Positions 505 to 51,185 are shown, numbered from the stretch's first letter. The stretch is 64,000 nucleotides of DNA from Dipteris shenzhenensis (GCA_047967505.1 CM106538.1), one strand, 5' to 3'. Made by a program: numbers and translations. The notes: generated by a model from the sequence alone, not told the origin.

Positions 505-546
505 AACACACACATACACACACACACATACACACACACACACACA
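505..546. repeat. (CA)n microsatellite
   Basis: Imperfect acacac/acatac run read directly. Confidence 0.9.
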
Positions 547-1313
547 GTGGGCTAAAACTATAGTTCTAGAATCATAGTTGTGGGTTGATATTGCAGTTTT
601 GGAATTACAATTGAGTTGAAATTATAGTTTTAGAATTAAAATTCTAAATGTAAATTCTTACAGACTCTAGATTTCTTTGATGGCCCTTTAAACCTTGAGA
701 CAAATATATATAGTATTTTGGGACAATATTTGACAACAACATAAGATGGCTTCCTGCTATTAAAGTTATGAAATTGACTAGAATTTCTAGAGTATCTTGG
801 AATGTCAATGGGTTTTTAATAGGCAATTTGTTCCAAAATTCTAAAATGACCAAAGTGCATATATTTGATCTATACTAATGTATGGATATCTATTGGGAAG
901 TAATAGGTGGCTTTGATAACATTTTTGTAGCATTAATTACATGATGATTTGGAACGATGGTATTATATGGATTTATATGGCATAAGTTTATGATTTTGAG
1001 CTACAATTTTTTGATAAGGGTTTTCCTATGATGCTCACTAGGTTGGATGCAGTTTCCTTATGCAATTATTATGCATCCTTGCAGCTCTGTCCTATACATG
1101 ATGGTGACTAGGGCAGAGTGAACCTATTACCATATGGTTATTATCATATATACAATAGTGAGATATGATTCCATCCCATTAAATCCTCATCATCTGATAC
1201 CTCAATAATTATGCTAAGTTTTATATTTTTTAGGAGTATAGGTGCATAATTATGATTTGAATAGACATGTCTAGCTATGCTATTAGTCTAGTTACCAATA
1301 CTGGCAAAGTTAA

Positions 1314-2692: not shown

Positions 2693-2899
2693 AGTACTGC
2701 ACGCAATGCCAGACTAGAGAAGCAAAACCTTTCCACCTTTAGCCCACATGTTGGTCAATCAAACTTGACCACTTGCAAGTAGCCATTGAAGCACTCAAGG
2801 GAGGTATTGACATGTAAAAATTGCACTTGACCACCTTAAGTAGCAAGGTATGCACTCACATCTGACCACCTTACAATGGATCATGGTACCAAGGGGAGA

Positions 2900-3293
2900 T
2901 GTTGAGGAATATGGTGCCATGAGCACATAATTAGAGGCTAAGGTATGGTGTAGGAATGTATTAAAGTAGCCACCCTAGGATGTGGACTACATGATGTGAA
3001 GATATAGATCAAGGTCATCCACAAGGAGGTATGTGGATCAGAGGACCCCACAAGTGTTAACTATTCAAAAGGCTCGTATCTTTGGACTTGCATATCCAAA
3101 TGGGGTCATGTCATAAATCAAATCAAACGGCAAGATCCACTTTATATAAGAAGCCTATCTCTTGTATTGTAAAAAGCACATTGGAATAGATTGAATGTCT
3201 CTCTCCTCATGGTTTTTTGTATGTGCTTTGATCCTCCATGATCTTTATGCTCATTGAGTAGTAGATTAGGCTACTACAATCCGCACTTTAACA
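2900..3293 (+). mobile_element. Ty1/copia 3' LTR
   Basis: TGTTGAG...TTTAACA preceded by polypurine tract aaggggaga (2891-2899). It is the reverse-complement homolog of 4440-4766. Confidence 0.85.
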
Positions 3294-4090
3294 AAGTCTA
3301 TCAATTGAGTTTCTTTGGCAGTCAAGTTTGCTTGTCCTCCTCCAATTGGAATGAATTCTATCTTATAATATCCATCTGAAATCACTCAGTATCTCCATGT
3401 ATCATTTCTCCAACAATATGAATGTGCTACCCTATTCCGATCACATTTTAATGTAGAGAAAGTAATGAACTAGACCAAGATTGGTCCTATTAAACTCTAC
3501 CTTCAACAAAGTCTTCTTGTCTTCAGTATTCATGTTCACCCATTATGATTGGATTACAAAATCAACATCAATTTTCTATCCTCGTTTGAATGGAGATATA
3601 GTTTTGCATATGATAAGTTTTGATTCTTCCAAAGTAGTTATCAGTATTGCAGTACCATGGTTGTGGGGTCTATATTAGCCCATACAAAGCCTAATGAAGT
3701 TTACACACTTCGTCATTCTGGATACAAAAATTGGGTGGCTACTCCAAGTAGACTTCCTCTTTGAGATCCCATTTACAAATGCTAAATCTATGCTAATTTG
3801 GAAGATGGACCACTAGAATTAGCTACCAATGCAATCACCATTTAGATTGTCTACATTTATGCTATTGGAGAAAATTTCTCTTCAATGTTCAGTCATCTAG
3901 CCACTAGCCATATCTTACACTTGTTAAGTGTCTTGTTAGACTTGTACTTAACCTTGTACATCCACTTGGTCCCTGTTACCTTTTGCTTGGTTGGTCTCAA
4001 AATTAGATTCCCTCTTGATGGATTCCATCATAGTTTCCATTGCAAATGTCAAATCATGTTTCACCTTTGCCTCTTCAAAGGATCTTCACT
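3294..4090 (-). pseudogene. Degenerate Ty1/copia reverse transcriptase, N-terminal half
   Basis: Minus-strand translation with stops and frameshifts gives KVTGTKWMYKVKYKSNKTLNKCKIWLVAR, AFVNG-DLKEEVYLE and VCKLH*ALYGL..PQPWY, matching copia RT (RVT_2) motifs. Confidence 0.85.
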
Positions 4091-4439
4091 TTTTTATTAA
4101 CTTGACCTAAGCAATTAGACCATAGTTCATGATTCGTAGATGTTGAAGTTTTGTTGGCCTCAATGAGATACCACCATAGAAGTTGTTGCACTCTACAGCT
4201 CTTTCTTAGAGCTGCTCTTGCACAAATCTTCCTTCACATTTTTTGTAGTCATATTGCCTTGGAGCTTTTGAACTTTGCTATGCAGCTACTTCAAGATGAC
4301 TATCTCAAAATGAAGAGCCTCTACATGAAAGAACCTCACTTAGCAATGCATAATGAGATTAAAAACTCCACTGAGCAAAATACTCTTGAAGAAGCTCACA
4401 CCTTTCAAAGGAAATGAACTATCCATGGCTTTGATACCA

Positions 4440-4766
4440 TGTCAAAGTGTGGATCATACTAGCCTAATCTACTACTCAATGAGCATGATCAAGTACAAAA
4501 AACCATGAGGAGAGAGATAGAAAGTATGAAACACTCAATCTATTCCAATGTGCTTTTTACAATACAAGAGATAGGCTTCTTATATAGAGAGAGCCATTTG
4601 AATAGTCAACACTTGTGGGATCCTTTGATCCACATCTCTCCTTGTGGATGTCCTTAATCCATAGCTTCGCATCATGTAGTCCACATCCTAGAGTGGCTAC
4701 TTTAATACTTTCCTACACCATACCTTAGCCTCTAATTATGTGCTCATGGCACCATATTTCTCAACA
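4440..4766 (-). mobile_element. Ty1/copia 5' LTR with tRNA-iMet PBS
   Basis: Minus strand reads TGTTGAGA...CTTTGACA, immediately followed by TGGTATCAAAGCC (4439-4427). Confidence 0.88.
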
Positions 4767-5290
4767 AACTTAGCCCATTATCAACAACTAGTTGGCAGTC
4801 TGGTGTATCTAGAAAAATTTGAAGGGTACCACCAAACCAAATATGGAATGAGCATTAACTTCATGAATATTGTGATTCAGATTGGGCCAAATATGTGGCC
4901 CTTACTTCCAAAAAGCAACCTAGTGTGGCTTTGTCTTTGAAAAAAGCAGAGTCTAATCAACATCATAGCATCATGTGTCTTGTTGGCTCAACTAGATCTT
5001 GGAAGAAAGTCATGTAGGTCTTCCAAAGTAATGAAGCTATGGAGATCATTAGAGTTCCATAGTGATTGCAAAGAACCTAGTGCTCCATAGTAAGACGAAA
5101 CACTCAACGTTCATTAGATTTTATAAAGGGGCCAATTGAGGAGGGCTAGTAGATGGGGGATCTAATACGTAACAAAGGATAATTCCACTAACATCTTTCT
5201 TTGCCAAGGATTTGTCTAGAAAACAAATGGAGCAACTTATGTGACCCTTTAAAATGGGGCCACATTGATTTATTGAGAGGGGTGTTAGAG
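4767..5290 (+). pseudogene. Degenerate Ty1/copia RT C-terminal half and RNase H
   Basis: LAHYQQLVGSLVYL at 4770-4811, a KTKH-like RNase H motif near 5092, and ttgagaggggtgtt typical of the copia pol end/PPT near 5272-5285. Confidence 0.75.
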
Positions 5291-6449
5291 ATCACTACCT
5301 CGGAGGGGATCCCCATATGAGAAGGACAATGAAGCAAATGATAGATCCCATTTAGTTTTCTTAAAGTCAAAAGATGAAGAGAGAGTATGAATATTATATT
5401 TAGTCTTCTCACCAAAGTCAAAGAATAAATAGATATTAGGTCTTATGAGTGAAGATAAATGATGGACATATTTAGCCTTCTTACTAAAGGCAAAGTATGC
5501 ACACTACTTGAAGACCAAGCATCTCTTATTGGATTTGAATGATAGCTAAACCTATGAACTATCTACATTGAATCTAAATGACAAATAAACCTATACGCTA
5601 CCCACATTGCAAATGAATGATAGGTAAAGCTACATAATACACACATTGAATTTGAATGACACGTAAAAATATAGACTTTTCAAATTGGGTTTTGAAAGAG
5701 AAAGATTCATGGGTTGATTCGGGATAGTAGGTGACCTAGAAGAGTAAGAGTAAGGTCTTAGGTTGAGGTTAAATGGTAGTAAGCTTGCAACAAATAGCTC
5801 GCAAATAGCATTGATTCAAGGGCTACATCACTAGCTAGAAATCAAGGGTAATCCCTTTGTGATTATCATGAGAGATTTGAGGAACATTAGTCACATGGAC
5901 GAACACCAACACTTTTGTAGGATGGCAATCATGAAGGAATCTTGACTCAATAAAGGAAGCACAATTGGATGATAGTAGTAGCTATTAGGGCATAACTATC
6001 CAATAAGCTTTTTTGGAATGATTGTTAGTGATGCTCAAAGATTAGTGGGATCTAAGAAATCCCAAGTCTATTTTTTGACAAATAATGAAGCTTAACAACA
6101 TCATATAGTTGCAAGCCTAGGCCCAAAGCCAAGACAAATCTTAGCAACACAACATAGTCATTAATTGAAGGTCCACAGGCAAGGTACTAAGCCAAGCTTA
6201 GGACATGGAGTTGAAGCATCTCAATGAGTTATAGAGTTGAGAAAGTACAAAATATCCCATTGAATCCTTTCAAGGAGGCATGTAGGATACACCAACCCTT
6301 CATGGCTATAGTCAAAGTATTGTTTGTGCACTTCAATAGATGAAAAGGTTAAAGATCCTTGATATGTGTGTGTAATCAAGGAACAAATTATTGTGAATTT
6401 TAGTTAAATATTTTGTTATTATTCCTTAGGTGGACCAAAGAGAGGATTT

Positions 6450-7350
6450 TGAGATCAAACTCTTGAGTAAAGGGTTTTTTGCTATGCAATCAAAGAACGT
6501 ATTTAACAAACTTGCTAACATGATATCCAAGCATGCCATGGTATCAAACATCAAGACGACATCCTTTTGGAGAGATCTTGGAGAATATTGATTGTGTTAA
6601 GAGTTATTTGGTTGGATGATTTTAACATGGTAGAGTTTACTAGGATAAGGTTGGAGGGAATACTAAGGTACTTCATAGTTAGTATTTACTAGAGCGGACA
6701 AATATTATGAACGAACCTTATAGAGTGTAGAGACCTTGAGAGCTACATGAAATTATCGAATAAACAAAAGGCTGCATAGAATGGTGGCTCAATCAGACTA
6801 TTACATTATGTCTTGGAAAGGTAATATCCACATAGTAAGCACCATTAATATTCACATGGAAACCATACTAAAGACTTGCCTTTGTGACCACTCTCCCCAA
6901 TATGATTCCCTTAAAAGAATCACAATAGGATAGTTTCCTTGGAAGTAAAAATGCCTACTTTAATAATAGTGCCCCTTTGTTGCTCTGCTGAAAGATGGTA
7001 AAGGTACATGAACAATCAAAGTAGCACTTTCAAGTCAAATTGTTAGTTAAAAAAAGGATCTCTATTTAGTGAATAGGATCATTGGGAAAGTGAGGAGACC
7101 ACAACTAAGAGATGAAGGCCTCAAAAGAGCCAAGGAGAGAAAGGCCCATGAAAGGGACATCCACCTTAATTGAGAAAGAGCAAGGTGGTGGAACTCATTT
7201 CTAAGCCTTTTGACATTGATATTCATAAGATAAAAGAAGATTAAAGGGGGAAATTTTAGATCGGCATTATAGTGGATTAAATAATGAGACAATTGATCCA
7301 ACTTTACATACTTGAGCTTTAAGGAAAAGCATGTATTACTTTTTAACCAA
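6450..7350 (+). mobile_element. Highly degenerate LINE (L1-like) ORF2 APE-endonuclease remnant
   Basis: DFNMVE motif (about 6618-6635) and (S/C)DHSP motif (about 6883-6897) at the expected spacing, with many stops. Confidence 0.5.
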
Positions 7351-8049
7351 ATCAAAAGCAGGTACAAAATAGTGATGGAAGATTATAAAGAGACTGCAAA
7401 GGTTCTTCTATCAATACTTCTATAATTTTGAAGGGAGAAACCCCAAAAGGAGAGAAATGATGTAAGTTTATATAAATATCAGCCAATGTAGCATTCAGAT
7501 ACATGAAAATGCTACTCTCTCTAGATCTATAACCATGAAGAGCTAAAGGATAGGATGAATATTGTGTGCATGCACTCGCATGTGCACATGTGTGTGTGTG
7601 TGTATGTGTGGACTTAACAAAACCCCATTTCATAGTTAAATGAAAACAATTTTGGTAATAGAAACAAAAGAGAAAATTGCTAAGAGAGATTACAAAAAAC
7701 TGAGAGGAGCACAATTTGCAAAAGACTTATAGAAAGCATGACTGTACATGCAAGTTCTACTTTGATAGGTCATCACAAGCATCACTTTAATTGAAGAGGG
7801 GAGTCTGCATACCTACCATCATCCAACAAGAAAAATGATAAGAACCATAATTTAACTTAGTTGGGAAGAGAGGTGTCATAAACACCCCTCCCTTGTTATC
7901 AGGATCACAATAAAAATAGTTGCTCATGTTATAGACTTATAAAGCTAATTTTTTATATTATGATTTAAGTGTAAAAATAATTGGGGTGAGTTTAAGGAAA
8001 AGATAATAAATGGTTATGTAAGGCACAAAAACTGTGTACTTGGGTGTGT

Positions 8050-8665
8050 GAACATAGAGGAGGAGGAGGGAAGAAATTAAGGATTAGAGCAATAAATGTA
8101 ATTTAAAGGTTTAGAGCATAAGGGTGAGGAGAATTTATAAGAAAGAGCAGCTTAAAGGAATTTCAAAGGTATTTAAAGAAAGAATTTTAAGAATTAAAAA
8201 GAAAGAGAATTAAAGAAGGAATTTCAAAGAAGGAAATTTTATAAAAATTGGGAAGAATTAGGGAAAATAGAAAGGATTTGAAGCAATTAGGAAAAATACA
8301 AAGCAATATGGAGAAATAGAGAACAATTATGGGGAAATAAGAAATTAGGATAATAATTAAAGAAAAAAGGGGGGAAATTGGGAAAATAGCAAAAAAAAAG
8401 AAAAAATATAGAAAAATTAAAGAAAAAAAGAAAGAAATAGGGAGCAATTAGGGAAAAATAGAAATTTAGGATAATATAAAAGAAATTAGTATAAAGGAGG
8501 GGAAAAGAGGAAAAGCAAAACTTAGGAAAAAATAGAGAGAGAGAGAGAGGAAAAATAGGGAGTGAAGAAGTTTGAGAGAGTTGACCTTAGGGAATTTAGG
8601 AACAAGTGAGAGGAGTGATTAGTGATAGGAGAAAATAGGGAAATTGGAAGAACTAAGGGGAAGTT

Positions 8666-8703
<38 letters not shown>

Positions 8704-8945
8704 GAAACATAGAGAAATGTTAAAAAAAGGAAATTAGACAAAATAGGAAGAAAAAATAATAAGGGAAATTTAGGAGATTTTAGAAAAATAGGAAAAACTT
8801 AGGAAGATTTTAGAAAAAAGTAGAAAAATAAGAAAATATTAGGAGAAAAAATATTTTTATTTAAAAATGGGTTTTAGATTAGGAAAAAAAGGGGGGGGGG
8901 AGGAAGTTGAGAAAGTGTGAGGGAAATTAGAAGAAAGAGAGGTTT
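8050..8945. repeat. Purine-rich (A/G) low-complexity tract with (GA)n
   Basis: Strong A+G strand bias seen directly; (GA)n run at about 8670-8698. Confidence 0.85.
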
Positions 8946-9025
8946 TCTCTTTATACACAAGAGTGAAAAGTGCAAGCAACTTTCCAGGGCATAAAATTTC
9001 AAATGTAACTTTTAGTCATACATTA

Positions 9026-9389
9026 TTACTTTGGCCAGCACTAGGATGTTTTTTCAAATTCTGAAATCCTGTGCTTCCACATGGCACAATATACACCCTT
9101 AGATTTTTCCAAATTCTGAAATCCTGTGCTTCCACATGGCACAATATACACCCTTAGATTTTTTAAATTCTGAAAGCCCAAAAGCTTTTCTAAAAGCCCA
9201 AAAGCTTTGAAAGCTTTTGAAAAGCTGCCTAAAAAGCCAACTGCGTAAAAAGCCAAGGCAAAACCTTTAAATACCCTTTGCCTGCTTCCTGAAGTCGTAA
9301 TCCCCAATGTGGATGTAGAAGTATCCCTGAATGTTTGTGTAAGCCCCCTGCAACGCTCTTGATCGCTTCCGTTCAAACTTGTTACTTCA
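9026..9389 (+). repeat. Direct repeat copy 1 (includes an extra ~58-bp tandem unit)
   Basis: Near-identical to 10611-10918. The unit aaattctgaaatcctgtgcttccacatggcacaatatacacccttagattttt occurs twice here and once in copy 2. Confidence 0.9.
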
Positions 9390-10610
9390 CTTGGTTATGA
9401 AGAATTCTCCTTCTTTTTTGCTGAATCTGACGATGTCTTCTCACTGCTAGTTTTTACTTTATCTGTGGTTTTTTAACCGACTTGAGGGAAATTCATCAAG
9501 AGGACGAAAGCCTTGGTTAACTAAACATCATCCTCTTGACTATGGTGCTCTTCTTCCTCCTCGCTCTCGAGCCTTGGCTATGGCTTCTTCCCTCCCATTG
9601 ACAGCCCTTGCCTGCTTTTGCTCCAGCATTACCTGATCGCATTCGTCCTCCCCCGACGTACCTTGCTTCTCCAGCAGCCAATTCTCGCAGGCGCGATCGC
9701 CGAGGCGCTTCAGTGGTCCTTATCGGAAGGCTGAAAAAAGAAGCACAGCAGGCCGGTGCTTGGGAATTTCTTCTCCCTTCTTTCCTCGGGAGCAGGCAGG
9801 GGCAGAGCCAAGCTTTGGAACTGGGCCTCAGCAAACGGAACAGGGAGAGAGAGAGAGAAAAGCAGCAGTCCGGAAGCTGGGAGCGGTCTCTTTTTTGTGT
9901 TTTTTCTGTGCGGGAAACTCGCCTCGGGAGTGCTTTCATCTGGAGATTTTTCTGTTAGTGCTTTCATTTGGAGCTTTTTCTGTTGTGTGATCGTGGTTTC
10001 GGGCCGGTGCTTGCTTCTCAGTAGATCCCGGAGGAGGAGGAGGAGCATCAAATCGACGGCAACATACAGATACACATCAAAGTGCAAGAAAGTCGGCTTG
10101 AATCTCGTTCTTTTCTGCACAAGAACCGCGCCTGGCGAGCAAGTGACGAAAGCCAGCGAGCGAGTTTTTGGCGTTTCTTTTTCTCTTGCGTGATCGTCAT
10201 TTCAATCCACCTGCAACACTCCACAAAAACCACGGGAAGCGCTTGCCTTTTTTTGTCACCTGCGTGTGAGCTTTCCCTGCTGGATTCAGCTGCAACACTC
10301 AATCGATTCACCACGAGGAGCAACAAGCTTCCTGTCTGTGTGTGCGCGCTGTTGTTTTCTGCCTGCACAGGAGGTTTGGATGAAAGACTGTCCTTGTGAG
10401 ACGCATCTACACGCAATATTTAGTGCGGTTTGCACCTCCATCTGCGATCAAAACAGTGGTCATGTTGCTTGGTGAGCAATCGAGGATGGAATTCGTCAAC
10501 GATTGCGCAATGGTTTCTGTGTTGTTTACCACGACGCTTTAGCTGCCCTGTTGCAAAATTGTTAGGGAGCTCCCATCGTGTTCGTCACAGTCAGAAACTC
10601 TAGCTGCTTG

Positions 10611-10918
10611 TTACTTGGCCAGCACTAGGACGTTTTTTGAAATTCTGAAACCCTGTGCTTCCATATGGCACAATATACACCCTTAGATTTTTTAAATTCT
10701 GAAAGCCCAAAAGCTTTTCTGAAAGCCCAAAAGCTTTGAAAGCTTTTGAAAAGCTGCCTAAAAATCCAACTGCGTAAAAAGCCAAGGCAAAACCTTTAAA
10801 TACCCTTTGCCTGCTTCCTGAAGTTGAAATCCCCAACGTGGATGCAGAATTATCCCTGAATGTTTGTGTAAGCCCCCTGCAACGCTCTTGATTGCTTCCG
10901 TTCAAACTTGTTACTTCA
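10611..10918 (+). repeat. Direct repeat copy 2
   Basis: Aligns to 9026-9389. Bounded by cttgttactt at 10607-10616 and 10907-10916. Confidence 0.9.
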
Positions 10919-11871
10919 ATGATAACTATTGCCAACTCATAAGATCATGGACATAGTGAATAATTTTAGATATAATAAGATGTTATTTATACGCACTTTT
11001 ATATTTCCATAGTCGTAATTTTTTGGAATCTTGCAAAGGCAAAAATTGTAACTACAACTGCTCCAAGATGTGTGAAGATGATTACCTTGATGGTTTGAAC
11101 ATCTTTGATCGTTGGATTGTGTACAGCTTTTCTGCTTGAATTTTTCATCTTTAGGAAATTGCACATATGCTAACCAACATATCTAAACATGCAGAACATG
11201 AGGAATGCATATTGACTAATCATGATTGTTTTTCAGATTCCAACATTCCAGCAAAGAAATAGGCGGCTTCTCGTCGAGCTGTGGATGTCACAAAGGATAC
11301 TCCACGTAAGTAGAATGTACGGTCATTTCAATTCTGAAATGTTTCTGCATCGTCTGTTGCTCTGGTCTGCATTAATGCGCTACACTTCCAACACTGGAGG
11401 TGACTATTCGAAACGGGGGGATGGCACGTTCCCCTATGATATATAATTTTTGGAGAGACATGTGCCGGCTCTCCACTATACATTATGTATGGTTTTTTTT
11501 TTTTTACACCTCATCTTGAGCACGCACACTTCTTCGCACATTCTGTTCCCGCAAGGGAACATTACATTTGCTTGGTTCGACCAACATACTAATCATGTCT
11601 GCAACACTTGTGTTTTTGAGATGTTTGCAGCCTCCAAACGAGTGTCTTCTCCTAAAGGTACGCACAACAAAATGTATTTGATTGATTCAAGTTATTTTAT
11701 CAATTCTTTCACCTTCTAAAGATCGAGGTTCAGTCCATTTTGTTTTTCCTGTTGCGATTAGACAAGACCACGTGAGTGAAATTGTAGCAAAGTTTCGGAT
11801 GGTTTTTATTATTAATCCCTGTAGGTGTTTAAACCCGAACATAAGACATCGATTCATGTTACGATGTAGAA

Positions 11872-12300
11872 ATGACCACCGGAAAATCCTTCGAACATGA
11901 CCATTCATCAACGCTCAGAGCAGCCAGAGGTCGAGCTATTCAGCTTGATATAACATCAAGAAAGATGTCCTTGAGGCCAGCTACGTCATCGTGGTTGACC
12001 ATCGCAGATAGATACAAGCAATGGTTTAGTAATTGCGCGGCTATTTTCTCTAGCCTTCAAATCTGCAGTGTCTGTGGCATAACCACGCTACTGTCTGCAA
12101 ACCAAAGGATCGTTTCTTCGCAAGGCATAGGCATCTCGAGCCACAGCGCTGCACTCAGAAACATGATACTTTTGGATGCCTGCGAGAATATGGGCATGCA
12201 AGTGACTTACTGGAAATGCCAAAGCTGTACACGAGATGCCCAGCGGAGCAGATACATTGTGCGGTTGATGCCACAGTACTCTCGGCAGTTGCTTAAATGA
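11872..12300 (+). pseudogene. Helitron RepHel N-terminal Cys-rich region, truncated by internal deletion
   Basis: RPATSSWLTIADRYKQW...LQICSVCG...WKCQSC aligns by eye with QPSFSSWLFIDKFLKEW...MQYCVFYG at 54521-54802 in element 2. Confidence 0.7.
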
Positions 12301-12400
12301 CCGTCAGCGAATTGCAAATGAGATTGCGGCTTACGTCCCCAGGGACGAGGCCCTGGATCCGCGAAACACAAGGCTGTGAGAACTAGTTCTCAGGAAGCAG

Positions 12401-14752
12401 TTGCACATATGCAAGAAAGCGTGCTACGTCGGACCGTTACACCACAGTTGCAAGCACGGCTTCCCTTTCGCAACACAGCCAGAATATGAACCCATCCTCG
12501 ACCCTCTGATGCAACGTTGGTTGTATTACCGGCCGGGACATGAGCACCGAAACGTCGTCCCTTACCACCCTTCGGTGTTACTGTTGTGGGGTGCACACAT
12601 GAACATACAACGGGTGACAAACTCTTCAATCTCTCACTACCTCCTCAAGTACGCGATGAAATCTGAACCAATGGGCAAACTGAACATCCGTTCAGAAGAC
12701 GCCTCGCGTTTGGGGTTGCAACATCTCAACGAAGTAAAGCTGAAACTCATCGCCGCGAGCCTCCTATCAAAACCAACCTCTCCAACAGAGGCCGTGCTAA
12801 ACTGCATGCAGATACCAACAATCACAAGGAGCGAGACCGTTCACTATGTCGACTCCTCGCCACCATCTCTAAGACAACGCATCGTCTCGCGAAACAACAA
12901 CGTCACCCTGCACCCGGTTGACATATACTGCGGGAGACCAAGCGTCATCGAGGATAGCACGTTCTACGATTACCATAGGCAATATGTGATCCGAAAGCCC
13001 AAGGAAACGCAACATGGAACGGTCGGTCTTGACCTCTTAGGCAACAGGATCGCAAAATGTGAGCGAGTAGTCAGATTCACTGACTACCACCCTGGACATC
13101 AACCAGAGGGGTACTTCTACAACGTGCTCTTGCGAAAACTCAGCTTCAGGAATGAAACGGAGCTCATATCACCTGCCAACATAGCTGGATCCTACTTTGT
13201 CGAATGCCAAATGCGCGGCCTCATATTGAGCAACGAGGACCTCGAGATGTATGTGACCGAATACATGCAAAGGAACTTGCTAGCGACTGACCACACGGAC
13301 CAGTTGATCAATATGATATTGCAAAAGGTTGCGATCATCCGAGACTGCCCGATGGAAGCGCCTAACATCGACCAGCAAACCGTAGAAGGGCCAACACGTG
13401 CGAGGATCTTGGAAAAAATGGCCGAGTTTCGCACCGTCGCCAATGCCGCATTGACAGTAGAACAACAAAGAGTCTTCGAAAGCCTAGCTTCAACAAGCTC
13501 GGGGCTGCACGTTGTCTGTGGAACACCAGGTAGCGGCAAAAGCTTCTTGATACGGTACTATGTTTCGCATCTGGTAGTGCAAAACAAAACGGCAATACTC
13601 TGTGCATCAACAGGGGCGGCTGCGACGCGGTTGAGTGGGATTGCAACCACTGTACACTACCAATTCAAGATCCCTGTGCGCAGCAATCAGTACCCACTGA
13701 ACATCCATGAGACGGATGAGCGACACCTCGCAATCAAGGAAGCCAACGCGATCATCATTGACGAGATGTCCATGCTAACAAGGATGACTTTCGATCTCGT
13801 GGTAAGACAAATCGTCAATGTGACTAATGGCACATTGCATGAGCCATCCAGACACAAAATGCTCATAATTTTTGGTGACCTGGCGCAATTACTGCCAGTC
13901 TGCAAACACCGCGAGGATCTCTGCGAGCCGTGCCACATCACGTCCTCCGCGCACTGGGCTCAAGCGAAAATGTACCACATGCAATTCTCGGTGCGACATG
14001 CACGAGACATGCCGTTCCTGGCATTCTTGCATACCATAAGACTCAGGACACCCACAATTGACGAGATTTTCGACTGTTTGGGGCAGTGCATTGTCGACAA
14101 GGAAGGTGCATGCCACTTCATCGATGCCGAAACAACCATCATTTGCACGCACAGAGTCGATGTCGCTACCTTCAACGATGAGCTTCTGGAGAAATTCAAC
14201 ACTCCCGAGATGATTGTGCATGTTCAAATACACAGTAACGCCGTGAGCGAACCAGCTCTCAAAGAATGGTTGGAGGACAAAAGCTTCAACGAGATAGGAA
14301 AAATTTGCGTGGGGGCGAAGGCAATGATAACGGAAAACATCAACCTTGCAATAGGTGCCGCAAATGGAGCAATGTGCAAAATCAAGAGCATCAATGCAAC
14401 TAGCAGGGGAGAAATCAACGGTATCACTGTCGTCATGGACACAACAGCGGCCGTGCTCACATTACGACGCTCGAAGCATCAGCGAAAGGCAATAAATGGA
14501 AAATGGTTCCACAAGTCCACATTTCCACTAACCCTAGCATATGCTATCACGGGACACAAATCCCAAGGCGCAACCATATCCAACAAAGCGCTGCTCATAT
14601 TTCGAGGAGTGTTTGCCCCTGGCCTAGCATACGTGATGTTGTCCAGAGTGACTGAGAGAATGAGGCTGCGCATACTACATTGCCCACATCCAGACATATT
14701 CAGACCAATTCCACGAGAGTTCTCACAGCCGACAACACAACCACGCGCATAA
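12401..14752 (+). CDS. Helitron RepHel C-terminal part: Rep catalytic Tyr motif plus Pif1 (SF1B) helicase, 783 aa open
   Basis: VVPYHP..LLLWGAHMNIQ and HYLLKYAMK (Rep motif 3); GTPGSGKS (Walker A), IIIDEMSM (Walker B), GDLAQLLPV, FPLTLAYAITGHKSQGATI and YVMLSRV (Pif1 motifs). Confidence 0.95.
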   Translation: MHICKKACYVGPLHHSCKHGFPFATQPEYEPILDPLMQRWLYYRPGHEHRNVVPYHPSVLLLWGAHMNIQRVTNSSISHYLLKYAMKSEPMGKLNIRSEDASRLGLQHLNEVKLKLIAASLLSKPTSPTEAVLNCMQIPTITRSETVHYVDSSPPSLRQRIVSRNNNVTLHPVDIYCGRPSVIEDSTFYDYHRQYVIRKPKETQHGTVGLDLLGNRIAKCERVVRFTDYHPGHQPEGYFYNVLLRKLSFRNETELISPANIAGSYFVECQMRGLILSNEDLEMYVTEYMQRNLLATDHTDQLINMILQKVAIIRDCPMEAPNIDQQTVEGPTRARILEKMAEFRTVANAALTVEQQRVFESLASTSSGLHVVCGTPGSGKSFLIRYYVSHLVVQNKTAILCASTGAAATRLSGIATTVHYQFKIPVRSNQYPLNIHETDERHLAIKEANAIIIDEMSMLTRMTFDLVVRQIVNVTNGTLHEPSRHKMLIIFGDLAQLLPVCKHREDLCEPCHITSSAHWAQAKMYHMQFSVRHARDMPFLAFLHTIRLRTPTIDEIFDCLGQCIVDKEGACHFIDAETTIICTHRVDVATFNDELLEKFNTPEMIVHVQIHSNAVSEPALKEWLEDKSFNEIGKICVGAKAMITENINLAIGAANGAMCKIKSINATSRGEINGITVVMDTTAAVLTLRRSKHQRKAINGKWFHKSTFPLTLAYAITGHKSQGATISNKALLIFRGVFAPGLAYVMLSRVTERMRLRILHCPHPDIFRPIPREFSQPTTQPRA

Positions 14753-14903
14753 AGGTATTCACTACCAGAGATTGAACAAGCCAGAGACAAGTCATGAATA
14801 TGTTATGTCAAACATGCATGCAAGGAAAATGGTTTTAATATCTTGTCTGTTGTCGAGAACAGGTGCAGAGAATCAGAAAGCTCGAGACATTGCAGCATAA
14901 GAC

Positions 14904-15240
14904 ATGGACGCAGACAAGGTAAATTCCACCAGCATGAAAGAATCTTTTTTTCTTGAAGATTTAAAAAGACGGCTCATTTGAAAAGACGGTGTAATAAGTC
15001 GTGCCTGCAAGCAGCTATTTGAGCTATACAAAAGCAATGCGAAGGCAACAAAACCTCCACCAGCAAAGAGGAGGTTCTTCCTAACCACAAAGCAATTCCG
15101 GCTAGCAAACAATGCAGGAGAATGTCCAGGAGCTTACATCAACGGCTTCAGCACGTATGCGGAACTACGCGACTTCATTGACAACTGCAATAGGCGTTTG
15201 CCAGCTAAAAGAGAGCCGGGAGGCTTGAGATTCGCAAATG
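14904..15240 (+). CDS. Predicted exons 1-2 of Helitron accessory gene (unknown conserved domain)
   Basis: ATG 14904 MDADK|gtaaat, acceptor cag 15012-15014, exon 15015-15240 LFELYKSNAK...FFLTTKQFRLANNAGECPGAYINGFSTYAELRDFIDN...RFANG|gtgcgt. Homologous to 58603-58952. Confidence 0.7.
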
Positions 15241-15322
15241 GTGCGTAATGCTTCCAAAAATTAAAAAAAATCACAACAATTGAGAAAAAGAATTAACGAG
15301 TTGCAAGAACAACAAACTCATC

Positions 15323-16171
15323 ATGGATTGCACTTCTCCTGCAAGACTCCTCAAAGAGATCCTTGTCGAGCTTGACATTGAGTTCGATGAGACTGATAGG
15401 ATGATGGAAAGTTTGGAGGGGCAAAAGCTACTAGACACGAAGATGAAAGGGATCACAGCGTATGCGTGCGAGCTGCTGCATTATGGGTACAACGTATCCT
15501 TGGAGTTGCTGAGGGACACGACGCGCGATCAAGCAACGGCTATACTCGAACAATTCATGGAACAATTTGGAGGGACGCACGACGCGACGCACCCAGTGAT
15601 GACAATGGAGAAGCTTACGTATATTTTCAACAGGGACTTATACGGAGAGCGCTTCGGTACTGGAAACGATCCTTTCACGCCAACAGAGAAAAACCAGGGC
15701 AAGTAAATAAATGCATTCTATTATGGACCTCAAACGAAAAAAAAAAAGACCGAAAACATCGATGACTAATGTAATTGTCATCGTTTATGCAGGTACGACA
15801 TTGAAAGACGCGAGCCTCGAGATGAAGGAGGAGCCTCCACTGAAGCGCCCGTGCAAGGGAATCGTGCGAGCCTCGTCGTCTACTGCATCACGTGCAAGCC
15901 CAACAATAGAAAATACATAGGGAGCACGACGGACCTGTCGCGGAGGATCAAACAGCACAATAAAAAACCACCAGCGAAAATGAAAGAGGACTTGCAGCGT
16001 TACAAGCCCTTCAAAGAAAATTTCGAAATCAAAGTTTTGGAAACAACAGACACTGTAGACAAAGCACGAACTTTAGAGCAGTACTACATAAGGAGCCACA
16101 ACACAGTAGGTCCATTAGGTTACAACACGCTCGAGGGCCATCCGGTAGAGTGCGGAAGTACTATTTCCTAA
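15323..16171 (+). CDS. Predicted spliced ORF: ~127-aa helical domain plus GIY-YIG endonuclease
   Basis: VVYCITCKPNNRKYIGST..RRIKQH...LEQYYI...GYN carries the GIY-YIG, Arg, Glu and Asn motifs. A GT-AG intron at 15703-15792 (phase 2) joins ORF 15323 to it in frame. Confidence 0.85.
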
Positions 16172-17399
16172 AGCGTTTGACCCAAAATATAAACATTTCT
16201 GCCTTCGGAAAAAGGGATCCAATGAAGTTGCAAATGGTGCTCCAACTTTTGTCGTACATGCAATGTAGCTTTGGGTTTGGATTATTCTTGTCACAGTTGC
16301 ATGCTTCTATCTCAATTTGGTTTTTATTTATTATTTATACATTTTTGAAATACATCTCCCCGTCGTTCGCTCAAAGTGGAATGACAATAGATTTGCTTAC
16401 AGTGCAAACAATAGAAATTTGTCTTCCTCCGAAAAAAAGAAAAACTACGTTTTACTGTCGACATGAACAACATCAAATGCAAGCAGGACTGGATGATAAC
16501 AAAATCTCTACAAAAGATTGCATGCAATCGAACATCAATCTTCCGCATCATTTTTGACAACGTGACTCATGTGAACCTCAAAGATAGCAAAAGAGAGAAG
16601 TATTCATCAAAACCCCAGCTGGCCAAGCACTCTAGTTCTTTGTACTTAAAGACAAAAAACTCCCTGGAGCAAAGGGATTTTCCAATGTAATCTTCCTACT
16701 TTATTCCAAAGGAATCCCTAAAGTAATAAAAAAAGAATTCTCTCAATGCCATCTTTATTCATACACTATTCTTTCCATCCAAAGGCAAGCAACTTCCTAG
16801 AATTCCAAACCCTAAATGTAGGCTATGCATAGAAATTTAAGTAGCAATAATAATGAAATAGCATGTTCCAAAGAGATCAACAACCTAGACAATAAAAAAT
16901 ATCTCCTCTTATTTTAGGAAATCATACTATGACTGAAAGTAAAACTTTCCTCCCAGTATATAATGTCCATATCTAAATGTCCAATCCATATCAAGGCATA
17001 ATATCTCATCTTGGGGGATCGTTCCATTATAATTTACTAATTCCCTATAAGAGGGCTAAGCAAAAGGACTCCCCAACAATACCAAGTCAAAAAGGTTAGC
17101 CTAGTCATCCATATACACAAGATAGCAAAGAAATTCTCTAGTAACCATTATCAAATGAAATTTCCCATCAAATGTGTTCAATATCAAAATCACAAGTCCT
17201 TTTAGCATATATATCATATGTTTTCTATCATCGAAGGGAGGCAATGGTTCAAGGCATTTCTATCTCTGTAATGCCCAAAGAGTCAAATTTCTCAATTAGC
17301 CAACTCAGGTTAACCGGTCTTCCAAGGTTTAGTTTATCTTCATCTATATGCCCAACAAAAAATTTGATAGATGCTTAGACGTACTCAACCTATACGTCA

Positions 17400-19300
17400 T
17401 TGCAGTCTACAAACTTTTGGTGTCCTAAACAGAATCAGATAATCTAGATAGTAGAAATAATCTATCTCAAAATTCCCCAACCATCCATTTATCCCAATCC
17501 CTCATCTCGACATATGGAGATATTAGCAGAGCAAGAGACCCATGTTACTCCAAAAACTTGCCTCAAGGGGATTTCTCAATTTTTCCAAAAAGACCTCCGT
17601 AAGTGTGGTATAGTCATACAAAATTGTGTCATTAACTAATAATCCTGGTGATAATCAAAGGTAAGATGTAGAAGAACATTCCTTGCTATAGGATATACAA
17701 AATAGTTTTCCCAACTCGTCAAAAGTGATAGCTAATCCAAAAGTGATTACTGCTCCATTATTATATTCAAACATATTCATCAGCAAATCTGGTAGAGAAG
17801 CATGCCAACCTGCATCCACCCAGTTTGCCATATTTAACTTGATAACAGTCATATCTCTAGAAATGTTAATTATAAAGAGGAATCCAATACTATTGACTCA
17901 TACTACAAATACAGCAAAAGGGGCAACTCTAGAACATTCTTAGGTTCCCCCAAGTTGCCATTCCTACATAGTGGTCAATCTCTCTATTCCATAATTCAAA
18001 ACTATATGCTAATTACAGAATCATTAGCAGAATACCAGTGATTTATAACATATGATCGAGTCTTCCAATGTCCTAGATCACATAAAGTGATGCATGGTGA
18101 AATTATATAAAATTGCAAAATGCTTTAATAAGTGAAACGGACTTTTCATAGTATAAACTATGACATACGAGACCATCACGGCCCAAAACTTAGTTGTTAT
18201 GCTTCGCATGTCTAGCAGACATTTCGTGAAATCGTGTACACCTATGCTTTCCCCAGTATTCACCTTGTCTTTAACAGACGTCAATATTTTATGTTGTCAT
18301 TAGCCTATGTAAACCAGCAAATCATTTGCATCTACCCAACCACCAATAGATTGGTTGGGCGGACGTCGCGGCTTCTATATCAGCCCGTTCCCTTTTGGAC
18401 TGGCCAATCTCCTCATTTAAAGGAGGATACTATGGCATCTCCAAGAGATAGATTATACGGATACATACACTGGCTACGAACAAAAAACAGGACCAAAGGA
18501 ACCAATTGCCCTGGTCTCAGGACCGTGTTTCAATTCTCGCTCTAGCTTCATCTCGTGCAAAGTTCTAGCTCCTGAAGTCGATCTATATTCCGTGACAAGC
18601 ACTACGTGTAAGGAGACCTTTGTCCTCTTCGATACTCGTCTGAGGTCCCCTAGACCTCATATGCCACTAAGTTCTTACATCCAACAGTATAAACATAAGT
18701 GCAGACACCAGTCTCTCAATCAAACAACTCGTCAGACGTTTTCACGTAAAAGTGTACTTCGAGTATATAGCACGGACTTCTCTCCCGTTGTAACCAACTT
18801 ACCATCCTTCAATCCGTCTTCTTGCGTGGAGGAGAAATGGCCTGGCATCTTTTTTCATGGATGGAAATGGGGAGTCCACCAACAATCAATACATTTCCTT
18901 AAACTTCCGTAAAAGACCATAGAATGGTCAAACGGAATGTCGCATCCGCACAGAGTAATCGTGAACCGTAGACATTATATAGCTTTTCAGCGGCAATCAT
19001 CTATTAGTTTCTCTAATTTACGTAAACCCTCTGAGCGGTTGTGCTCCCTTCTAATCGACCTGGTCCTTGCGATCTCTCCAGCTAAGGTCATTAGTTCGAC
19101 CTACTGGAGTAGACAGCTTATAGCCAGGAAGGGGTTGGCGATCCCTTCATCTACCTGTTTGATTGGAGTGGGTTCGCGCCCACTTGGAAAGGCTTGTCGT
19201 ATAATGCTCTGAGTGCTTCGTTAGTTTTACTATTTCCTTCCGTGGAGGAAATACTGCTCGGCGTCCCTTCCATCGAGCCGGAGTCAGAGGCTCCATGAAT
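17400..19300 (-). mobile_element. Possible very degenerate LINE (ORF1 and endonuclease remnants)
   Basis: Weak minus-strand motifs only: CWWTPHF near 18870 (ORF1-like), RSFWK near 17590 and WMVGEF near 17480 (APE-like). Confidence 0.25.
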
Positions 19301-20700
19301 AGAGAGACTATAATAGCATCTTCTAACACTATGAGGGAAGGGAAGTGAGCTCGGAAGCTATCATTCTCTCCCTCCTGTCAATACAACACTCCTTCCTCTC
19401 CTTCTCCGAGTGAATACGTGAGTGGAGGTGCTATCCTCACAAAAGCAATCGTGAGCTATGGAGCTGCGTATTTATCTTAATCATGCATGGACTCCTCGTT
19501 TTGCGAATCGACTTTCGTAAGCTTTGAATGACTTCCCATGTCCCGTCTGGACTTAGCCGAACGTTTGGAATCATACCTGAGCTACCTCCATTGCGTCTCG
19601 GTATGGGAAGTAAAATCAAGTTGTGTGAGCTCTGCGTTTGGGAGTCACGCTAGTAATCCATCCAGTCCTTCCTTCAGTGTTCGAAAGGCAGTAGCTCCAG
19701 TCTAGGATGGCGGGATGGGCTTGTAAAGCTTTGGATGCTTTTTCCAAGTGGTAGAGGAAGGAGGCAGATTCTCTCGAGCCTTGGGGAATGGTACGACTAA
19801 CCTCCCTTAAAAAAATCGGCGTCCCCTCTGATCCGAATCTACTCTAAATCTCCTTTTTGCCTTATACGCCGAATGATGATTTACTATCTTCCATATCTAT
19901 TTCATATCCCCTGTCCCGAATTACAAACTAGAGGATAATGTTAGTGGGACTTTTTATTACCCATTGCTTTTTCATCTATATCATCATGTTTCATATGAAT
20001 AACCCCAGGTCTATTGGTGTAATCAGGGTATAGTCTGTGGGATTAATGATTGATTCTTAAGGTCACTCCGCCTCTCCTTATATTACGGATTGGAATTATA
20101 ATTCCATGGGCTACTATTTCCTTATATTATGGTCTCCCAAGTCAATCTATGTATATACCAGTCCATATGTAGTGGTTTAGTGGTCATAATGGTGGTATTA
20201 CCTCATGCTATATTCCAAAATATTGACGTAATCATTTGTCTTTTCTCCAATGAATCATCCTTCAGTGGTATACACTCTAAAATTTTAGAAATTTAGTCTA
20301 CTTGATCGAGAATTGTGACTTAGCTTAATTACATCACTGCATTACATGTATGTTATATACTTCCGTGCCAAATCTATGGCCAATATTCAAATGTATCGCA
20401 TAATCAAAGAAAAATCTATCCCATATTGTCTTTAATAGGGAAAACACCTTTTTCTCTTGAGTTCTCCATGTTCCAAACCGAATGGAAGGGTATGTGTGCA
20501 AACACCAATTCCATGGAATTGCAATAGAGGTCATGGCACTTTGGTCTCAAATAGAAGAGAAAGAGGTTGAAGAAGTGCACATGAACCAAGCTCTCCAAGC
20601 ACAGGAGAAGGCAATGCAGGATATGATTTCCAACCTCCACCAGAGCTAGAAATAGCTGATAGCAACACTTAATGCTACAGAAATGATACAAACCTCCTAT

Positions 20701-24620: not shown

Positions 24621-26188
24621 GTTATCATCTTTACGCCTTTTGGACCAAGGAAAAAAGAAGATATTGGGCATTTCTCTCAAGGGCCCAAAATGAGCTTCCC
24701 TTTTTTCTAATGGTGTGTGTGTGTGCATGTGTGCACGCATGCACATATGCATGCATGTGTGTGCATATTTGTTGAAAAAGGCCCAATTTGTTAGGTCCCA
24801 TATGAGGAGTGCAACCTAGCTTGATAGTGGCAATAATGTAGGTAAGCATTGTGACACCATAAAGAGGGAGTGGGAGAGATTTCCATGCAGGCAACATACA
24901 TGCCTCCTTGTGGGAATTCTTCTTGAATTGGGTTTAAAGGGTAGCCAATGAGGCCACCCTAGTCAGCAGATATGGCTAGCAGTAAGCCATAGTTTGGACT
25001 AATTATGTGGCTTTATATAGCCTAGCCAAGTGTCCATGTTAGTGCTACTAGGCTAGGGAAGGATGGCATAATAAGTGCTACTGGGTTACGGAATCAAACA
25101 ACAATTCTAGTGTGTTTGGGTCGATTACTTGGCTAGAAAGAATTTCCTCTCCCCCTAACTTTCCAATCTCTAGCTTGGGAAACTTCAGGTTTGGGCCCCT
25201 CGAATTATCTTATCCTCCTCACCGCCTTCGAGCATGGGTGATATCAAGACCAAGGAATTGGCTAGGCAAAACACTCTATGCTCAAGTTCAAGAGTTACTT
25301 GCTTGGGCACCCACTGGCAACCCATAAGCAAAAACTTTCTCAAAGGTCAAAATTGAGTATTAGAAGGGTTAGTAGAAGGCAATCCACGTGTTGCGAAAAC
25401 AAAAAGTGAAAAAGCAGGGAGCGGTTTCCCTAGGGGGAGGAGGATTAATGTTGCCTTGAAAAGAAAAATAGTACTAATAATTAGTTTCTAAAGCTTTTGT
25501 TCTAAAAGATGGTGGTGACTTTTTTTTTTGCCTCTTTGGCATCAGCAAGGCTAGGGAGAGGATGCCTTCGATCAGGCCTATGCCAATTTGGTAGCCAATA
25601 AAGCATAATTAGGCGAACATTCCATACATTATGCCATTCTTTCTACTGATGCAAATTCATGATTAAGCCATTTCTCACGCTGATGGAAAGGAATGATTAG
25701 GGATTATGTTGTTCAAAGTGCTACTAGTGAGGGAGTTTGGGAGTGCACTAATACCATGTAGATATGGGTTTCAAGAGCATATACCCCAACTACTTTTTAA
25801 TATGGATTAGAGCATAACCTGCTCAATAGATTAATGATCCTTGCATTGCGAGTGCTGTAAATAACGTATATAGTTGAGGCCTTTTAAATAGGCCTTTCTT
25901 TAGGCAACAACCTACTTCCATAGGCCTATATGTAGTAAGAGAGTTAGTTGAGTGCCAATTAGCAATACTACAATTACATTGGTAGTTAGAGAAGGATTTG
26001 CCTACTTTACTCACTACCTTCAATGAGAGAAACTATAAGACCTCTAAGCTCCAATGTTAATATAATTAATACAATAGGAAGCCAAAAGGAGTTATATTTA
26101 TTTTAACTTAGCTAAAGGCATAAAAATGAATGCAAACATATTAATATTTCTTTACATACATGCGTGCACATGCACACATGTGCATGTG

Positions 26189-26189
<1 letters not shown>

Positions 26190-26263
<74 letters not shown>
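26190..26263. repeat. (TG)n microsatellite; shorter copy at about 34978-35015
   Basis: Read directly. Confidence 0.95.
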
Positions 26264-26265
<2 letters not shown>

Positions 26266-26379
26266 AATTACAAGACAAACATTATCCATCTTAGACTTAT
26301 CAATGAAGACAATTTGTGATAGGATATTCTACCAAGAAAGCTTACGAAAAGATCAAATAATTTTGCTCAAAAAAATACA

Positions 26380-26690
26380 GGATGATATTGAAGGAGCTCC
26401 ACTCACCTGCATCCATCCACAACAAGGACAAGTTAGAACAAGATCCCTTATTTGTGGGACAACAGGCTTCAATGCACAGCTCCACTTGTTATCGATGTCA
26501 CAATATCATAGGTTATTCTAATACAGCAAAATTGAATCGACCTTGGATGGTGGTACACCGTGTGGCACCTCAATATTTGAGTCATAGGCATCCAGATGCT
26601 CCATGTTTACGGTGTGAGCTCTTCACACTTTCTGAAACATATTTTTACAAATTACCCCAGGACAGAGGACAGAAGAAACTTTAGTCTAGT
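26380..26690 (+). pseudogene. LINE ORF2 C-terminal zf-RVT-like remnant; copy at about 35130-35440
   Basis: WMVVHR..P...H....PCLRCE....ET resembles the L1 C-terminal zinc-binding motif. Confidence 0.45.
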
Positions 26691-26783
26691 CTGATATGGA
26701 GAAAGTTTTATCTCCATTGAAGCTATAAACAAGCTTCCTATAGAGACCAAGGATTTAATCATATAGATTACCATTTGCTGAGA

Positions 26784-27817
26784 TTTAGAAATAGACATCT
26801 AGTGGTCTTGAATCATGTTTATAGGAATATGACAATAATATGCTTAGTGAAAAAATCATCATACCTTTAGAATAAGAGTAACTATGTAGATGTATGGAGT
26901 ATCTTTGTGCATCCACCTTTCACGTAGAAGACTCCATTGGCCAATACGTGAAGTATCTGTGTAGCTATCAAGATTGAGCGATCATACACAGCTTAACAAG
27001 TTAGACTGCCACTATGAATACTTGTTCGTGGTATGGCTTTATTTGGGTGTCAATCAATGTATACCTGGTTTGATTCCGTTGCAAAAACTTTCTGTCAATA
27101 GTGAGTGGTCTTCAGGCCTTTAGCTATGCCGCGAGATCCTTCCTTGCCTTTGGCGTAAAATTCAATCGTTCAGCCACTTTGTTATCCTATCTCCATGCAA
27201 AGGAGAATAGCACGATTTCTACATGCATGGTTCAAGGCAGAGTTACGCTCAAGAAGTCTATGGGCAATATAACTACTGACTGAGATCAACGAGTTTATAA
27301 GAGCCATGTCTCATCCCTGGACTGAGCAATGATCAGAGTCTTCTTATGGTTATAAGAGCTACGATGTCTTGTGGACGTCCATATCAGCAGCTTCTTTCCT
27401 TTACAGGGAGTCCACACAGCTTGCCTCTCTCGCTATCAATCTTGCAAAGGGATGGACAAGAGTATTGGCGGTAGTATAGTTCAGAAGCTATCGTATGAGC
27501 AAGAAAAAGAAAGAGAGATGACCAAGCACAATGCATTAACCTTGAAGCTGCGTTTTGAATCACAATGGTTTGAGTGGGAGGCTTTATATAGCCATCAACA
27601 TATTCAGGCCGACCTTGTCGGTCTATATTTATGCAACGCTTCACCTTATATGTGCATTTCCATGCAATGTCCCATGGCTAAATTAGAAAACAATATCCCT
27701 TAATAGCAATTCCTCATGGATTAGCAGATGTTTGAACACAAAAGGTCATGGTCTAGCTTTTATGGTAAGTCCAGGATTTACTACTTCTAAAAAGGTACAC
27801 ACACATGTGTGTGTGTG
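26784..27817 (+). repeat. ~1-kb direct repeat X flanking the Penelope-like element; other copies 30025-31070, 35535-36563, 38771-39827
   Basis: Each copy starts tttagaaatagacatc and ends in aaaaggtacacac...tgtgtg. Confidence 0.93.
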
Positions 27818-34600: not shown

Positions 34601-34975
34601 ATAACCTGCTCAATAGATTGGTGATCCTTGCATTGTGAGTGCTGTAAATAACGTATATAGTTGAGGCCTTTTAAATAGGCCTTTCTTTAGGCAACAACCT
34701 ACTTCCATAGGCCTATATGTAGTAAGAGAGTTAGTTGAGTGCCAATTAGCAATACTACAATTACATTGGTAGTTAGAGAAGGATTTGCCTACTTTACTCA
34801 CTACCTTCAATGAGAGAAACTATAAGACCTCTAAGCTCCAATGTTAATATAATTAATACAATAGGAAGCCAAAAGGAGTTATATTTATTTTAACTTAGCA
34901 AAAGGCCAAAAAATGAATGCAAACATATTAATATTTCTTTACATACATGCGTGCACACACACACATGTGCATGTG

Positions 34976-35016
<41 letters not shown>

Positions 35017-51183: not shown

Positions 51184-51185
51184 CT

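Follow-up and report, generated by a model that had tools for sequence, protein, structure and literature searches.

The 64,000-nucleotide stretch of Dipteris shenzhenensis DNA analysed here (GCA_047967505.1, CM106538.1; hereafter the window) contains two divergent Helitrons, which we call element 1 and element 2, and in both of them a small gene follows the region encoding RepHel. Our results indicate that this is probably a separate, intron-containing accessory gene, specific to a lineage of Helitron-like elements of ferns and related plants and lying about 140-150 nt downstream of the stop codon of RepHel. Its second exon encodes an unnamed conserved domain, referred to below as domain X. 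Transcripts of the gene occur in relatives of element 1, with three introns spliced out, and comparison of the two elements indicates that it has been retained through a divergence that saturated synonymous sites. Both in element 1 and in a relative from Adiantum, domain X appears to be followed by a predicted helical region of ~110 residues. Coordinates of all features are collected in Table 1.

An earlier reading of the same DNA, made from the sequence alone, had proposed that each Helitron carries a small gene with an ATG micro-exon directly behind its Pif1-type helicase, and this arrangement was confirmed, the distance from the helicase stop codon to the micro-exon being 138-152 nt. The second exons of the two elements, which that reading had considered homologous in spite of very different nucleotide sequences, are indeed related. 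When translations of positions 15012-15242 and 58698-58955 were compared by BLASTP, 27 of 78 residues were identical (35%, E 3e-15), and in tblastn searches of the window each copy of domain X recovered only the other one (E 1e-11), the next best match being found at E 0.12. Also as proposed, each of these exons terminates in a GT donor of phase 1, and the codon interrupted is the same in both (AN/G, the slash marking the junction).

A profile prepared from this pair was compared with 1.84 billion representative proteins and retrieved 10 relatives at E <= 1e-3, with four reaching E <= 1e-10. ENA assemblies are the source of eight, and the remaining two come from Logan and from NCBI (the latter being Adiantum nelumboides MCO5577392.1, denoted P0012). 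In the 12-sequence alignment of domain X, residues P39 and I43 do not vary at all, and L24, Q28, N33, G36, G45 and G77 hardly do. The similarity ends at a common A-N/D-G position, after which the short open reading frames (ORFs) enter unrelated sequence; this fits read-through of a conserved intron by ORF callers.

Domain X matched no family in Pfam, NCBIfam or PHROG and nothing in a PDB sequence profile search, and the ESM Atlas provided no usable match. When the domain X alignment was used for a longer search of proteins, none of 7999 candidates matched at E <= 0.01, which is a weak negative result, since P0012 was also missed, while scans of JGI metagenome contigs with two sub-alignments of the domain produced 593 and 29 pattern matches, none of which was confirmed. 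The structure predicted by AlphaFold2 (AF2), with a mean predicted local distance difference test score (pLDDT) of 78.6 and values above 90 in the core, shows a small alpha/beta domain of ~40-60 residues, confidently folding in the model and without known relatives. With this model as a query, Foldseek detected no known fold, and chains of the peripheral-subunit-binding type (PSBD) were listed only at E 2.6-9.5.

Domain X is located directly 3' of the helicase in all three loci with visible context, namely element 1, element 2 and P0012 of Adiantum. The last of these consists of a helicase (56% identical to that of element 1 over 443 residues, and then cut off), domain X (39% identity to element 1, E 1e-14) and the helical region, the latter represented by residues 570-673, which match exon 3 of element 1 with 28% identity (BLASTP, E 3e-13). 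Between elements 1 and 2, the proportions of nonsynonymous (pN) and synonymous (pS) differences in domain X are 0.36 and 0.88, respectively; pN equals 0.41-0.43 in two helicase blocks and 0.24 in the Rep C-terminus, and synonymous sites are saturated (pS 0.84-0.94). Because domain X and the helicase show a similar degree of divergence and synonymous sites are saturated, the gene of domain X looks like a long-standing accessory gene of Helitrons. The earlier suggestion of a conserved, Helitron-linked module rather than a random capture thus agrees with its position behind the helicase in every visible locus, with its helicase-like divergence and with its splicing. Among the copies present in the sequencing runs described below, none of the 10 listed insertions and deletions (indels) falls within exons 2 or 3, and 17 of the 30 exon substitutions listed sit at third codon positions (P 0.007).

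Evidence for splicing comes from contigs of four sequencing runs, X1, X2, X3 and X7, the run shares being all 0.28 or lower. Splicing of intron 1 was found in one of these runs: an X2 contig follows the window up to 14918 and carries an overhang in which 26 of 28 letters are those of positions 15015-15042, in agreement with the intron predicted at 14919-15014. The intron is retained in contigs of X1, X3 and X7, and such retention would stop the frame after 25 codons.

The other two introns of element 1 proved to differ from those drawn in the sequence-only reading. Intron 2 had been proposed as a 50-nt segment, 15241-15290; contigs of three of the four runs (X1, X2 and X7) join 15240 to 15345 instead, and the product reads ..FANG/LLKEIL... 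At the acceptor, the window encodes R (AGA, in S-P-A-R-L-L-K), while all five relatives covering the site encode G (GGA, in P-P-A/V-G-L-L-K), hence the relatives carry G at the last base of the acceptor. If splicing in the window copy went to the closest canonical AG, a frameshift would result, with a stop at 15402. Intron 3 had been assumed to start from the GT donor at 15703, and here all three contigs crossing the intron, derived from two of the four runs, use a GC donor 4 nt upstream. Their joints connect 15697-15699 to 15792-15795 and are of equal length in all three contigs. Together, the observed junctions produce a 240-codon frame.

Exon 3 has six close relatives, with 71-90% identity in the search table and 76-90% in the alignment; in the relatives P0015 and P0016, a stop codon occurs one codon before the exon 3 donor. 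The AF2 model of this exon is of low confidence (pLDDT 53.9). Its start shows a sub-threshold similarity to Pfam HeH (E 0.02, 15 bits at a cut-off of 28.9), found in four of nine closely related members. The frame of the basic tail encoded by exon 4 is also open in the relative P0013, and no alignment was obtained between this tail and that of P0012.

Downstream of intron 3, a GIY-YIG nuclease domain is encoded. The sequence-only reading had the helical ORF spliced in frame to this domain, and only one half of that proposal stands: the domain is genuine, as judged from its sequence, but the in-frame splice was not confirmed, since the frame set by the observed junction stops at 15918-15920 and the GIY-YIG domain is read in another frame. 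The ORF of 15770-16171 matches Pfam PF01541 with 58.1 bits (cut-off 22.6; E 1.1e-15) over ORF residues 36-112, and the phrog_314 homing endonuclease with E 1.4e-18, which points to a domain of the homing-endonuclease type. Comparison with TIGR01453 gave 54.8 bits (E 1.2e-14), below the curated cut-off of 56.05, over profile positions 4-89 of 215, so that the domain resembles the catalytic half of this family and is not a full member of it. A weak alignment to 1zg2 and to the catalytic domain of I-TevI (1mk0) places VVY..KYIG..RRIKQH in register. Catalytic residues of GIY-YIG enzymes are the Tyr of GIY, the Tyr of YIG, Arg and His, followed by Glu and Asn; the last two we take to be those of LEQ and GYN here, placed by eye from the motif.

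There is no ATG ahead of the domain in the GIY-YIG frame. If the GT donor at 15703 were used, an uninterrupted frame of 325 codons, ending at 16169, would run through the nuclease; this junction occurs in none of the three contigs that cross intron 3. Programmed -1 frameshifting was considered as another route into the GIY-YIG frame and rejected, as inspection by eye revealed no canonical slippery heptamer in 15793-15870. Near positions 16143-16145, the window is one base shorter than contigs of three runs, which alters the last ~9 GIY-YIG codons, and P0013 continues there in the other frame. An 11-nt stretch at 16175 is present in an X2 contig and absent from the window.

The predicted gene of element 2 comprises 136 codons, with intron phases equal to those of element 1. 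It ends, as had been read from the sequence, in a short exon (59052-59176) without a nuclease. A motif LTK..II, which by eye seemed common to this exon and element 1, was dismissed for want of a significant alignment.

According to the reading that we favour, the product of this gene would be a nuclear cofactor of transposition which binds DNA or RepHel. We infer such a role because modular GIY-YIG enzymes use separate DNA-binding modules, and from the presence of the basic tail. The element 1 lineage would then have gained a nuclease of the homing-endonuclease type at the 3' end of the gene, and this nuclease would be translated only from a minor GT-donor isoform (the 325-codon frame) or would no longer be translated. 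That the nuclease might be optional and nick target DNA, as the earlier reading suggested, is likewise a hypothesis. One may speculate further, and here we are doubtful, that domain X is a new small fold defining an ancient accessory protein of fern and bryophyte Helitrons, which might tether element DNA or RepHel, and that the donor pair, GC at 15699 and GT at 15703, might switch between the cofactor alone and its GIY-YIG-armed form. If true, the donor switch would represent a regulated second nuclease in rolling-circle transposition.

A number of observations weigh against the accessory gene as outlined above. X3 is the only run certain to be RNA, and it contains unspliced contigs only; that X1, X2 and X7 are RNA is a guess. 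Genomic context is visible for one of the 10 database relatives, the other nine lying on short contigs. The count of third-position changes covers only the 40 best-supported of 192 substitution rows. The gene model of element 2 is a prediction, and its exon 3 has no significant similarity to exon 3 of element 1 or to P0012. The junction in all three crossing contigs leaves the GIY-YIG domain out of frame. Moreover, an expressed X1 contig bears an 8-nt deletion at 16018, inside the GIY-YIG region, P0013 changes frame within the domain and P0014 is short by 7 residues; lesions are frequent in copies of this gene, the stops of P0015 and P0016 before the exon 3 donor included. Finally, domain X matches neither a fold nor a family, and binding of DNA or RepHel is thus proposed by analogy.

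The fate of the nuclease admits two further accounts. It is quite conceivable that the GIY-YIG domain is a relic in the element 1 lineage, where the 240-codon protein, consisting of domain X, the helical region and the basic tail, is made without a slowly decaying nuclease. This would be in accordance with use of the GC donor in every crossing contig and the resulting stop at 15918, and with the lack of indels reported between 15793 and 15933 in these contigs, which implies that the relation of the frames is common to the copies. Five of the 10 listed indels fall in the GIY-YIG region, P0013 and P0014 are damaged as well, and neither element 2 nor the Adiantum model contains a nuclease. A decaying sequence would be harder to reconcile with a GIY-YIG frame that in the window still runs through 133 codons without a stop and keeps the motif residues, with six of nine listed substitutions in this frame at third positions, and with identity among copies (81-90%) which is not below that of exon 3 (71-90%). 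These signs of constraint need a route of translation, the more so as the frame has no start codon of its own ahead of the domain, and they are the reason to consider, as a possible though rather doubtful solution, that the two donors lying 4 nt apart yield two products, a nuclease-free cofactor and a GIY-YIG fusion. The window has both donors, that of the GT form giving the 325-codon frame, and the string GGCAAGTAA is retained in the relative P0019, whose frame ends with ...NQGK. The failure of any crossing contig to show the GT junction speaks against two products, albeit weakly, since contigs drop rare variants; the stops in P0015 and P0016 lie ahead of either donor.

Other explanations concern the origin of the gene as a whole. 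Domain X could be a spliced C-terminal extension of RepHel, as in the Adiantum gene model, rather than part of a separate gene, which we regard as improbable. In P0012, helicase and domain X do form a single predicted protein, and one X7 contig extends from 14654, at the end of the helicase, as far as 14918. Nevertheless, in both elements of the window a stop codon follows the conserved helicase end and precedes the ATG micro-exon, a 1095-nt X1 contig begins at 14889, 15 nt ahead of this ATG, and the helicase of P0012 is cut off after ~443 aligned residues, so that its model looks like read-through of an internally deleted copy. Very improbable, in our opinion, is the capture of a host-gene fragment whose exons play no role in transposition. 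Gene capture is frequent in Helitrons, and the GIY-YIG domain of a moss element was called 'captured' in the HELIANO study (PMC11417382). However, position and intron phases match between two elements although the identity of their RepHel proteins is only 36-62%, the module is found in the Adiantum relative too, its divergence runs parallel to that of the helicase, and there is no host-type protein among the 10 matches in 1.84e9 representatives. The separate accessory gene remains the reading that we prefer.

As regards the host Helitrons, neither copy in the window is intact: in element 1 the HUH part of Rep is missing and intron 2 has A as its final base, and RepHel of element 2 is fragmented. 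The 790-codon frame of element 1 includes the Rep tyrosine motif YLLKYAMK and a helicase matching Pfam PIF1 (E 4.2e-26); no Pfam match to Helitron_like_N (PF14214) was found on this ORF or on ORFs upstream of it. We consider the HUH block of element 1 to be missing because a tblastn search of window positions 1-20000 with Rep pieces of element 2 reached only from the tyrosine motif onward, with nothing upstream of ~12488. Apparently, element 1 has either decayed or undergone an internal deletion. A weak tblastn match (E 6e-5) was noted between the ORF 11845-12300 (+), upstream of the RepHel frame of element 1, and positions 54531-54698, upstream of the element 2 Rep; an N-terminal part of RepHel may survive in this ORF, with ~1.1 kb holding the HUH block lost.

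Element 2 is classified as decayed because its RepHel pieces are spread over different frames. Its Rep is recognized by PF14214 in two pieces lying in different frames (E 7.1e-12 and 7.8e-07), and its helicase by PIF1 (E 4.2e-4), with 36-40% identity to the helicase of element 1 in tblastn. Compared piecewise by the same method, RepHel of the two elements is 36-62% identical, one 46-residue piece showing 32.6%. Only chance-level matches were obtained when termini or terminal repeats, by which HLE1 and HLE2 elements could be told apart (5'-TC..CTRR-3' with a hairpin and an AT target, or short terminal inverted repeats and a TT target), were sought by short-word blastn, comparing flanks between the elements and 5' with 3' flanks of each. 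For the Exo_endo_phos (APE) domain, neither the RepHel ORF of element 1 nor the accessory ORFs gave a Pfam match at E <= 1.

Table 1. Features of the two Helitrons and their accessory genes (positions counted from the first letter of the window)
Feature	Position	Strand	Remarks
Element 1 RepHel remnant	12380-14752	+	Single 790-codon open frame: C-terminal Rep part and complete Pif1-like helicase
Element 1 exon 1 (micro-exon)	14904-14918	+	ATG, MDADK; GT donor next; X2 contig overhang at 14918
Element 1 intron 1	14919-15014	+	96 nt, GT..AG, phase 0; one X2 contig
Element 1 exon 2 (domain X)	15015-15240	+	Unnamed conserved domain; ~40-residue core at about residues 21-60 (translation of 77 aa)
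Element 1 intron 2	15241-15344	+	104 nt, phase 1; GT donor, window copy ends AA; X1, X2, X7 contigs
Element 1 exon 3	15345-15698	+	117 codons plus split codons, predicted helical; homologue of the P0012 region behind domain X
Element 1 intron 3	15699-15792	+	94 nt, GC..AG, donor GCAAGT; X1 (1 contig), X2 (2 contigs)
Element 1 exon 4 tail	15793-15920	+	41 codons, basic PLKRPCK stretch; frame set by observed junction; stop 15918-15920
GIY-YIG open frame	15770-16171	+	133 codons; domain ~15875-16105; differs in frame from exon 4 tail
Element 2 RepHel, decayed	55663-58465	+	Helitron_like_N and Pif1-like pieces over at least 7 open frames
Element 2 exon 1, predicted	58603-58620	+	ATG, MATSDE; GT..AG intron 58621-58685
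Element 2 exon 2 (domain X)	58686-58953	+	Homologous to element 1 exon 2
Element 2 exon 3, predicted	59052-59176	+	After 98-nt GT..AG phase-1 intron 58954-59051; stop 59174-59176

The remainder of the window also holds PPR repeats, a copia-type gag, a chromodomain integrase tail and a ubiquitin-like gene. The latter starts near 59821 (ORF 59788-60060; PF00240, E 1.2e-17), and a long C-rich tract with few interruptions is located at 59315-59392, ~140 nt past the end of the element 2 accessory gene. ORF fragments with PPR repeats at 47788-48144 (-) and 51284-52477 (-) are in different frames (PF01535/PF13041 on the one scanned) and resemble a cluster of PPR genes, either broken or rich in introns, located between the two Helitrons. 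Near-identical copies of an ORF pair (308 + 216 codons) are present at 28206-29921 (-) and 36952-38667 (-); they contain reverse-transcriptase-like strings, FRYIDDICLV and GIPMGLSCSP, give no Pfam match at E <= 1e-3, and sit in a repeat unit of ~8.7 kb, which is repeated also at 26078-27703 / 34865-36449. Just upstream of element 1, two copies of a ~115-codon ORF (..SLNGS.QERCRGLTQTFRD..) occur ~1.5 kb apart, at 9041-9394 (-) and 10600-10944 (-), and the one copy scanned had no Pfam match. Short repeated ORFs at 50846-51220, 53517-54136 and 11443-11475 have in common ..NPRKGTFLGLIIFGEEM..LSPHTNVW... A 34-nt match (91%) connects 11443-11475, upstream of element 1, with ~54007-54040, upstream of element 2, and may be a small dispersed repeat.

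Since the gene has been kept beside RepHel through deep divergence, is spliced and is found in transcript assemblies, it is a candidate for a genuine cofactor of rolling-circle transposition in non-seed plants, in which Helitron-like elements have been little studied. Translation of the nuclease would hinge here on the choice between two adjacent donors. The practical value is modest: a profile for annotation of such elements, and a defined protein for tests of DNA or RepHel binding.

Several known systems resemble the gene described in this work in one respect or another. In Helentrons, an APE (Exo_endo_phos) endonuclease is fused to the C-terminus of RepHel and has been proposed to help nick DNA during rolling-circle transposition. 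The likeness is an extra nuclease associated with RepHel; the fold is unrelated, and in contrast to the fused APE, the nuclease found here closes a spliced gene distinct from RepHel and, in the observed transcripts, is not in frame. Plant Helitrons carry accessory ORFs as well, RPA, OTU and others, which have been catalogued mostly by Pfam domain (RPA, OTU, APE and ~20 others). The RPA-like and OTU ORFs are, like the gene of elements 1 and 2, separate, placed at a fixed position relative to RepHel and kept across families, whereas domain X is similar to them neither in sequence nor in family. With homing endonucleases of the I-TevI type, known from group I introns and phages, the GIY-YIG domain has in common the catalytic domain, its GIY..YIG..R..H motifs being aligned. 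The DNA-binding half of I-TevI is absent here, the domain is C-terminal rather than N-terminal, and the element that carries it is a transposon of a eukaryote, with spliceosomal introns.

A C-terminal GIY-YIG nuclease in a eukaryotic mobile element is also mentioned for Penelope-like retroelements (PMC6431247); there it is fused to a reverse transcriptase, and both the element class and the mechanism differ from those of the Helitrons studied here. The closest case is that of HelenSM92 from the moss Sphagnum magellanicum, a family of HLE2 (the Helitron2/Helentron group), for which the HELIANO paper (Nucleic Acids Res 2024, PMC11417382) reports a CDD match to GIY-YIG, called 'captured'. The earlier remark that GIY-YIG domains occur in Helitron2-type elements is borne out by this family, which is likewise a Helitron-like element of a non-seed land plant with GIY-YIG besides RepHel. 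In the available portion of that account, an unnamed N-terminal domain, introns or transcripts are not mentioned, and the comparison is one of descriptions only. The same paper provides a Pfam-based list of 20 extra Helitron-like domains, and a survey of this kind is blind to domain X, because the domain has no family model. Among the listed matches to published work on RepHel in ferns, none describes this gene. The 'captured' moss nuclease gains a context from our analysis, as the corresponding domain in element 1 ends a larger conserved accessory gene. While GIY-YIG in a moss Helitron-like family has already been published, the unnamed N-terminal module and the spliced structure of the gene are new.

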